From a virus (taxonomy: Duplodnaviria > Heunggongvirae > Uroviricota > Caudoviricetes): a stretch of DNA of 11,286 nt. The notes beneath the pieces are model-generated. The model did no database searches and was not told the DNA's origin. It saw only the letters and a list, made by a program, of their open reading frames with translations. Location: the IMG/VR virus record IMGVR_UViG_2600254997_000012. One strand, 5' to 3'. How positions within the stretch are numbered: position 1 is the first letter of the stretch; every line of letters begins with the position of its first letter. The position numbers and the translations under genes were made by a program. This document shows, piece by piece, positions 8,768-9,426 of this stretch.

Positions 8768-9426
8768 ATGAAAATGAAATGGTATGAACTGGCTAGATCC
8801 AGAATGAAAGAGCTCGGCATAACTCAAGAGAAGTTAGCCGAAGAGCTAGGTATGACGCAGGGTGGGATTGGACACTGGTTGCGCGGATCTCGTCATCCAT
8901 CTCTTAGTGATATTGGTGTGGTGTTTAAATACCTTGGTATTGATAACATATCATTCAACCACGACGGGACATTTTCACCTGTTGGCGAATACTCATCGGC
9001 CCCAGTTAAAAACAATATGAGTACCCTGTTTTTTCTCATGTTCAGGCTGGGATGTTCTCTCCAGAACTCAGAACCTTTACCAAAGGCGATGCGGAGAGAT
9101 TGGTAAGCACAACCAAAAAAGCCAGTGACTCTGCATTCTGGCTTGAGGTTGAAGGTAACTCAATGACCGCCCCAACAGGTTCCAAACCTAGTTTTCCTGA
9201 CGGGATGTTAATTCTGGTTGACCCAGAGCAAGCTGTTGAGCCCGGCGATTTCTGCATAGCCAGACTTGGTGGTGATGAATTTACCTTCAAGAAACTGATC
9301 AGGGATAGCGGTCAGGTGTTTCTACAGCCACTAAATCCACAATACCCAATGATCCCATGCAATGAGAGTTGTTCCGTTGTGGGGAAAGTTATCGCTAGTC
9401 AGTGGCCTGAAGAGACGTTTGGGTGA
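8768..9426 (+). pseudogene. cI: cI repressor, apparently disrupted by a 1-bp frameshift (N-terminal HTH domain in one frame, lambda-type C-terminal domain in another)
   Basis: N-terminal MKMKWYELARSRMKELGITQEKLAEELGMTQGGIGHWLRG... (frame of track ORF 8726..9106); C-terminal [41 protein letters not shown]...[12 protein letters not shown] (track ORF 9052..9426) matches the lambda CI C-terminal domain. Frames differ; adding one A to the A5 run at about 9008-9012 gives continuous ...[25 protein letters not shown]... Confidence 0.7.

Follow-up and report, generated by a model that had tools for sequence, protein, structure and literature searches.

A probable homopolymer miscall splits the mosaic, lambda-like cI repressor gene of a prophage contig from Escherichia coli E851/71

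The CI-type repressor gene at 8768-9426 of the window (the whole stretch of 11,286 nucleotides analyzed here) sits in two reading frames that part at a run of five A residues (A5). The frame defect of the gene as deposited is probably an artefact: our comparisons make it very likely that the A5 at 9008-9012 is a homopolymer miscall, one A having been lost from a run of six (A6) in the sequencing or assembly of a draft contig, and E. coli E851/71 most likely carries an intact repressor. A sequence-only reading of the window had placed the two halves of cI in different frames and had proposed that one extra A in the run would restore an ORF of about 219 aa. Both claims were borne out, and the alignment to intact homologues that it suggested as a check shows A6 at the run and, in the nearest relatives, no difference in the rest of the gene. 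The parts of the split gene are the following.

8768-9106, + strand: 5' ORF of the split cI gene, carrying an HTH_3 domain (E = 4.9e-11) and a linker
9008-9012, + strand: A5 run, the site of the frameshift; A6 in all intact homologues examined (alignments)
9052-9426, + strand: 3' ORF of the split cI gene, in another frame, carrying a Peptidase_S24 domain (ORF list and domain search)

The 5' ORF follows the true frame to 9012 and then continues out of frame for about 31 codons before it stops at 9104-9106; its alternative ATG codons lie at 8732 (the PGAP start), 8768, and 8774 (the Prodigal start). Adding one A joins the HTH and S24 ORFs, which meet at the run, into an ORF of 219 aa from 8768 or of 231 aa (696 nt) from the ATG at 8732, and the repaired 696-nt gene shows 100% DNA identity to the gene of the "LexA family protein" WP_096246228.1 of E2348/69. 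In the repaired protein, Pfam finds HTH_3 (E = 1.9e-10; residues 11-58) and Peptidase_S24 (E = 1.1e-28), and the top PDB match is the lambda repressor 3BDN (2.6e-96).

The whole window is identical in sequence to draft contig ALNX01000111.1 of assembly GCA_000754045.1, from the EPEC strain E. coli E851/71, for which an ALNX accession has been cited (PMC3897749). With one insertion left out, it matches a lambda-like prophage of E2348/69, located near 1.05 Mb, at 99.8-99.9% identity and has the same gene order, running from a Q-type antiterminator through rusA, a KilAC antirepressor, ninB, ren, P, O, and cII to cro and, beyond cro in the divergent direction, through cI and a BRO-family gene to N. 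The prophage of the window is thus the lambda-like E2348/69 prophage near 1.05 Mb, of the EPEC1 lineage.

We judge the frameshift to be an artefact because the A5 allele is absent elsewhere, because the contig carries an excess of private indels, and because other assemblies with a split cI are rich in indels. A 65-bp query centered on the A-run, searched against complete E. coli genomes, found the A5 allele at 0 of 798 places in 772 genomes, the best matches (65/66) being A6, and a metagenome scan whose pattern accepted either A5 or A6 returned A6 in every contig (0/16 with A5). The two nearest complete genomes have A6 at the run, with the 110 surrounding bases otherwise unchanged relative to the window, and the closest relatives (four DEC-series drafts and the complete genome CP164306.1) all carry A6 and an intact cI together with the same 310-aa BRO allele as the window. 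A pseudogene would be recognized by A5 in reads or in independent assemblies of the lineage, and none of the other high-quality copies examined has it.

Compared with E2348/69, the window shows eight one-nucleotide indels and three substitutions. The assumption that all of these indels are private was rejected, as A7 at 10336 and A5 at 8683 occur in other assemblies, which lowers the count from 8 to 6. The six private indels of the contig lie at 396, 457, 6145, 6198, 9008, and 11246 and the two private substitutions at 4410 and 10570, whereas a control pair of complete genomes with the same prophage type differs by 1 indel and 18 substitutions (Fisher p = 6e-4). If the indel fraction among real mutations is assumed to be 0.1 to 0.25, the probability of at least six indels among eight differences is 2e-5 to 4e-3. 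Private indels break further ORFs besides scrambling O. In the O gene (5760-6659, - strand), a +1 at 6145 and a -1 at 6198, in T-runs 53 nt apart, keep the frame of O but replace residues 155-171 (about 16 residues), RKDYSSENSGESSDQPE, with the unrelated EKIIRPRILANPLTSQK; no other assembly has this aberrant product, and the two indels are probably two sequencing errors. The insertions at 396 and 457 are private single A residues in one shared non-homopolymer context (ACTGC to ACTAGC), with a TfpB-like ORF broken, and such changes (CTGC to CTAGC) are not accounted for by slippage.

Other runs in the window do vary among assemblies. The BRO gene (9507-10439) has A7 (10336-10342) instead of A8 at its 3' end, giving a product of 310 aa rather than 280 aa. 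This A7 allele is common to five other assemblies, the complete genome CP164306.1 included, and since it recurs it looks like a real run-length polymorphism, unlike the cI indel. The A5 run at 8683 is shared with STECUZB006 and is probably also a real polymorphism.

Split repressors of this kind are found in other deposited sequences. The C-terminal ORF of cI is called alone in 148 blocks of the public collection, and the long contigs inspected mostly owe the split to A5, to T5 in the neighboring T6 run, or to both. Five split-cI assemblies with an indel excess were compared with close relatives and showed 5-55 indels versus 2-12 substitutions, several of them with many fragmented genes. The change of T6 to T5 (equivalent to window positions 9029-9034) splits cI at 5930-5990 of AFJB01000007.1 (assembly L005) and also in assemblies L004, L007, and L011, sometimes together with A5. 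The adjacent A6 and T6 runs are evidently an error-prone spot. The 110-aa N-terminal product from the Prodigal start occurs on three contigs, namely ALNX01000111.1, one from an assembly in many fragments, and a short Logan contig in which other runs are contracted too, and an exact-product look-up of the N-terminal split product from the PGAP start (8732-9106) returned no record.

Decay of the prophage is evident from two insertions, an IS629-like one in nutR and an IS10-like one at the left end, and bears on whether a real loss of cI would be tolerated.

7108-8417, + strand: IS3-family (IS629-like) insertion of 1310 bp between cro and cII (domain search and comparison with E2348/69)

The IS629-like element has inverted ends (TGAACCGCCCCGGG) and is flanked by a 3-bp TTG target duplication (7105-7107 and 8418-8420). 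It sits downstream of cro, at a distance of 25 bp, with a boxA-like sequence (CGCTCTTTGTAACAA) on one side and a boxB-like hairpin (GCTGAAAAGC) on the other, and therefore splits nutR, which should abolish N-dependent read-through into cII-O-P-Q. Its junction, sought in complete E. coli genomes, gave no single-piece match there. At the other end, a 247-aa phage gene is interrupted by an IS4-family (IS10/ISVsa5-like) element, of which window positions 1-192 form the terminal part and which truncates the prophage at the left; the contig probably ends there because of this element, and the same junction is present in the O111:H11 strain 88.0502.

Given this decay by IS insertion, an inactivating mutation in cI would be tolerated, and the frameshift could be a genuine slipped-strand deletion in E851/71, in which case the product would be no more than an HTH fragment followed by a nonsense tail. 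Such a fragment would act like a RecA-cleaved repressor, binding weakly and without cooperativity, and its loss of function would be tolerated because O, P, and Q are not expressed past the IS629-like element in nutR, with leftover early transcription restrained by Cro (an "anti-immune" state) or by a heterologous repressor. A mononucleotide run is a classic substrate for slippage, real run-length polymorphisms occur nearby in this phage family, and the window carries two IS insertions absent from E2348/69, one of which splits nutR with a clean 3-bp target duplication. We nevertheless consider a genuine deletion unlikely: A5 is missing from 814 independent high-quality copies, the ratio of six private indels to two substitutions is far from a biological mutation spectrum, two of these indels scramble O in a pattern seen in no other assembly, and assemblies riddled with indel errors miscall this very run. 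Moreover, N and the pL side look intact in the window by domain search, and derepression of both would be costly. The fuller version of this scenario, in which CI was lost by slippage at the inter-module junction and the prophage persists in a Cro-governed, "anti-immune" state with the IS629-like element cutting off the replication and late genes, is to our minds quite unlikely. The sequence-only reading had held that, if the frameshift were real, the prophage would lack a functional repressor and be kept silent by other lesions, and that, if it were an assembly error, cI would be intact; the lesions do exist, in nutR and at the left end, but it is the error that is favored, the intact gene being the better supported outcome in view of the allele counts and the indel excess.

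It is also conceivable that the A-run is a functional switch, be it a phase-variable tract, a site where programmed slippage in transcription or translation produces full-length CI from an A5 template, or a boundary at which HTH and S24 proteins are separate by design. The run does lie in the inter-domain linker, at the module junction and four bases before homology to lambda begins, and the downstream ORF starts at a Met directly after the Ala-Gly cleavage site. Phase-variable tracts, however, vary within populations, whereas run length shows zero variation in the 798 + 16 high-quality copies, and phase variation and programmed slippage are rejected because A6 is invariant. Efficient slippage by RNA polymerase typically needs about nine or more A/T, for which A5 or A6 is too short. 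A natural end of the N-terminal ORF at this point, which the sequence-only reading had allowed for, was looked for and found in none of the intact homologues examined. Any such switch is thus extremely improbable, and a miscalled run in an otherwise intact gene remains the reading that we prefer.

Once the missing A is restored, the architecture of the gene can be compared with that of lambda cI.

9016-9426, + strand: lambda-type C-terminal module (93.2% nucleotide identity and 136/137 aa identical to lambda cI)
9046-9051, + strand: Ala-Gly codons (GCT GGG), aligned with the lambda autocleavage site Ala111-Gly112 (alignment)
9160-9162, + strand: Ser codon of the GNSM motif, aligned with the lambda catalytic Ser149 (alignment)
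9289-9291, + strand: Lys codon of the TFKKL motif, aligned with the lambda catalytic Lys192 (alignment)

From these alignments, cI is best described as a natural mosaic, in which the C-module of lambda follows a heteroimmune DNA-binding module, the joint lying shortly before the cleavage site. Similarity to lambda DNA sets in at 9016, four bases past the A-run, and extends to the stop codon, with 28 mismatches in 411 nt and a single amino acid change (L for W), whereas alignment of the region upstream of 9016 found no DNA similarity to lambda. That 28 DNA differences yield one amino acid change indicates that the C-module is under strong purifying selection. The N-domain shares about 17-20% protein identity with that of lambda, and its region contains 16 invariant columns relative to lambda-type sequences, mostly in the HTH motif; taken alone, it matches the N-domain of the lambda repressor (1LLI) weakly but significantly (E = 0.0024). 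As an HTH_3 domain like that of lambda, with these invariant columns and this match, it has the same fold and is distantly homologous. In strain BUCT2930, a lambda-type N-domain is joined to a C-module that is 99% identical in nucleotides to that of the window, the L variant included, from which it follows that modules have been exchanged at this junction. The claim of the sequence-only reading that the C-terminal domain is lambda-type up to the final residues is therefore confirmed, whereas its description of the N-terminal HTH as unrelated to lambda cI holds for DNA similarity but not for protein, and its "classic immunity-swap mosaic" is a real chimera, albeit with nothing special to the window, being the standard form of a common immunity type.

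As for the working of the intact protein, the codons at 9046-9051 encode what we take to be the autocleavage site, given established knowledge of lambda cI. The Lys lies 43 residues past the Ser, as in lambda, a spacing that would support the assignment to Lys192; the catalytic Ser is named S150 in Met-inclusive numbering (PMC8951638). Around the gene, the following elements are found.

8443-8658, - strand: cro-like HTH gene of 71 aa, divergent from cI (ORF and HTH domain match)
8685-8761, no strand assigned: OR region (comparison with AP005153 operators)
10521-10593, no strand assigned: putative OL, with three operator-like sites upstream of N (operator pattern scan)

Two of the 17-bp operators annotated in AP005153 have exact copies in the window (8685-8701 and 8717-8733), and a diverged third lies at about 8743-8759. 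The operator pattern scan gave seven matches in the whole window versus 2.0 expected by chance, and a promoter scan of the OR region yielded nothing useful; more speculatively, the ATG at 8768 might be a leaderless pRM start, as in lambda. Within 10556-10570, the substitutions that separate the contig, E2348/69, STECUZB006, and the DEC drafts sit at the ends and center of one putative OL operator (AAATACGATTTGTTC, - strand), which appears to be polymorphic among otherwise near-identical prophages. The window accordingly has what is expected around a lambdoid CI-type self-cleaving repressor, the class named "LexA family protein" by PGAP: an N-terminal HTH domain; a C-terminal Peptidase_S24 domain with an Ala-Gly site and a Ser/Lys dyad, the QAGMF, GNSM, and TFKKL motifs being invariant relative to lambda cI; and a divergent cro with repeated intergenic operators and a second operator set before N. 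One continuous frame for both domains is absent from the deposited sequence and appears once one A is added. The HTH_3 domain would bind the 17-bp operators in the intergenic region of cI and cro as well as those ahead of N, and the C-domain, by its near-identity to that of lambda cI, would provide dimerization, cooperativity, and RecA-stimulated self-cleavage. It is solely from the identity of 136 of 137 C-domain residues to lambda cI that repression of pR and pL and RecA-stimulated autocleavage are predicted.

The case carries little biological weight, as databases already contain the repressor type, the mosaic, and the intact sequence, from hundreds of genomes and from several Stx phages. 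It does call for caution with drafts of lambdoid prophages, in which the A6 and T6 runs of cI are recurrently miscalled and give rise to false "split repressor" calls; split-cI calls that lack read support should not be taken as loss of immunity. If the mutation were real, E851/71 would harbor a natural CI-less, IS-crippled prophage, of mild interest to work on prophage domestication, and, if A5 were real and the state Cro-governed, it would be a natural counterpart of the laboratory anti-immune lysogen.

The C-module is present in 1211 of 5426 complete E. coli genomes, and 776 of the 5426 match at least 80% of a query consisting of cI plus flanks, the N-terminal module included. Under the name cI, the gene is also annotated in the Stx1-converting phage AP005153 (BAC77937.1), Stx2 II, Stx2 phage 1717, YYZ-2008, and Nil2, and the immunity type also occurs in coliphages 2B8, ev017, and ev207. 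The chimeric architecture is a normal, widespread, and already catalogued immunity type, with nothing novel about it. A 2022 survey groups the CI proteins of Stx phages by clade and emphasizes their mosaicism (PMC8951638).

Among known systems, the CI of E2348/69 (WP_096246228.1) is the same gene, intact with A6, from which the cI of the window differs solely by the missing A at 9008-9012, although the E2348/69 prophage is without the IS insertions of the window prophage. The phage copies (AP005153 and others) are 97-98% identical in nucleotides to the cI of the window and have the same divergent cro and two annotated 17-bp operators. Lambda CI (NP_040628.1; PDB 3BDN, 1F39, and 2HO0) shares the C-domain from YEYPVF to the C-terminus (136/137 aa; 93.2% of nucleotides) and likewise has the two-domain layout, the Ala-Gly site, the residues aligned with Ser149 and Lys192, and the divergent arrangement of cI and cro. 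It differs in its N-domain, which is without DNA similarity (about 17-20% aa identity), in its operators, and in having rexA/rexB downstream of cI, where the window has the BRO-family gene. The lambda N-domain and the lambda OR/OL operators that define imm-lambda are absent from the window, and with an N-domain so different from that of lambda the operators are not those of lambda, to which the phage is expected to be heteroimmune. Further afield, the LexA/UmuD family has the Peptidase_S24 fold and the Ser/Lys dyad in common with the CI of the window, but the relation to LexA is distant (40.8 bits versus an NCBIfam LexA cut-off of 110.95), and the protein is a phage repressor, not a host SOS regulator.
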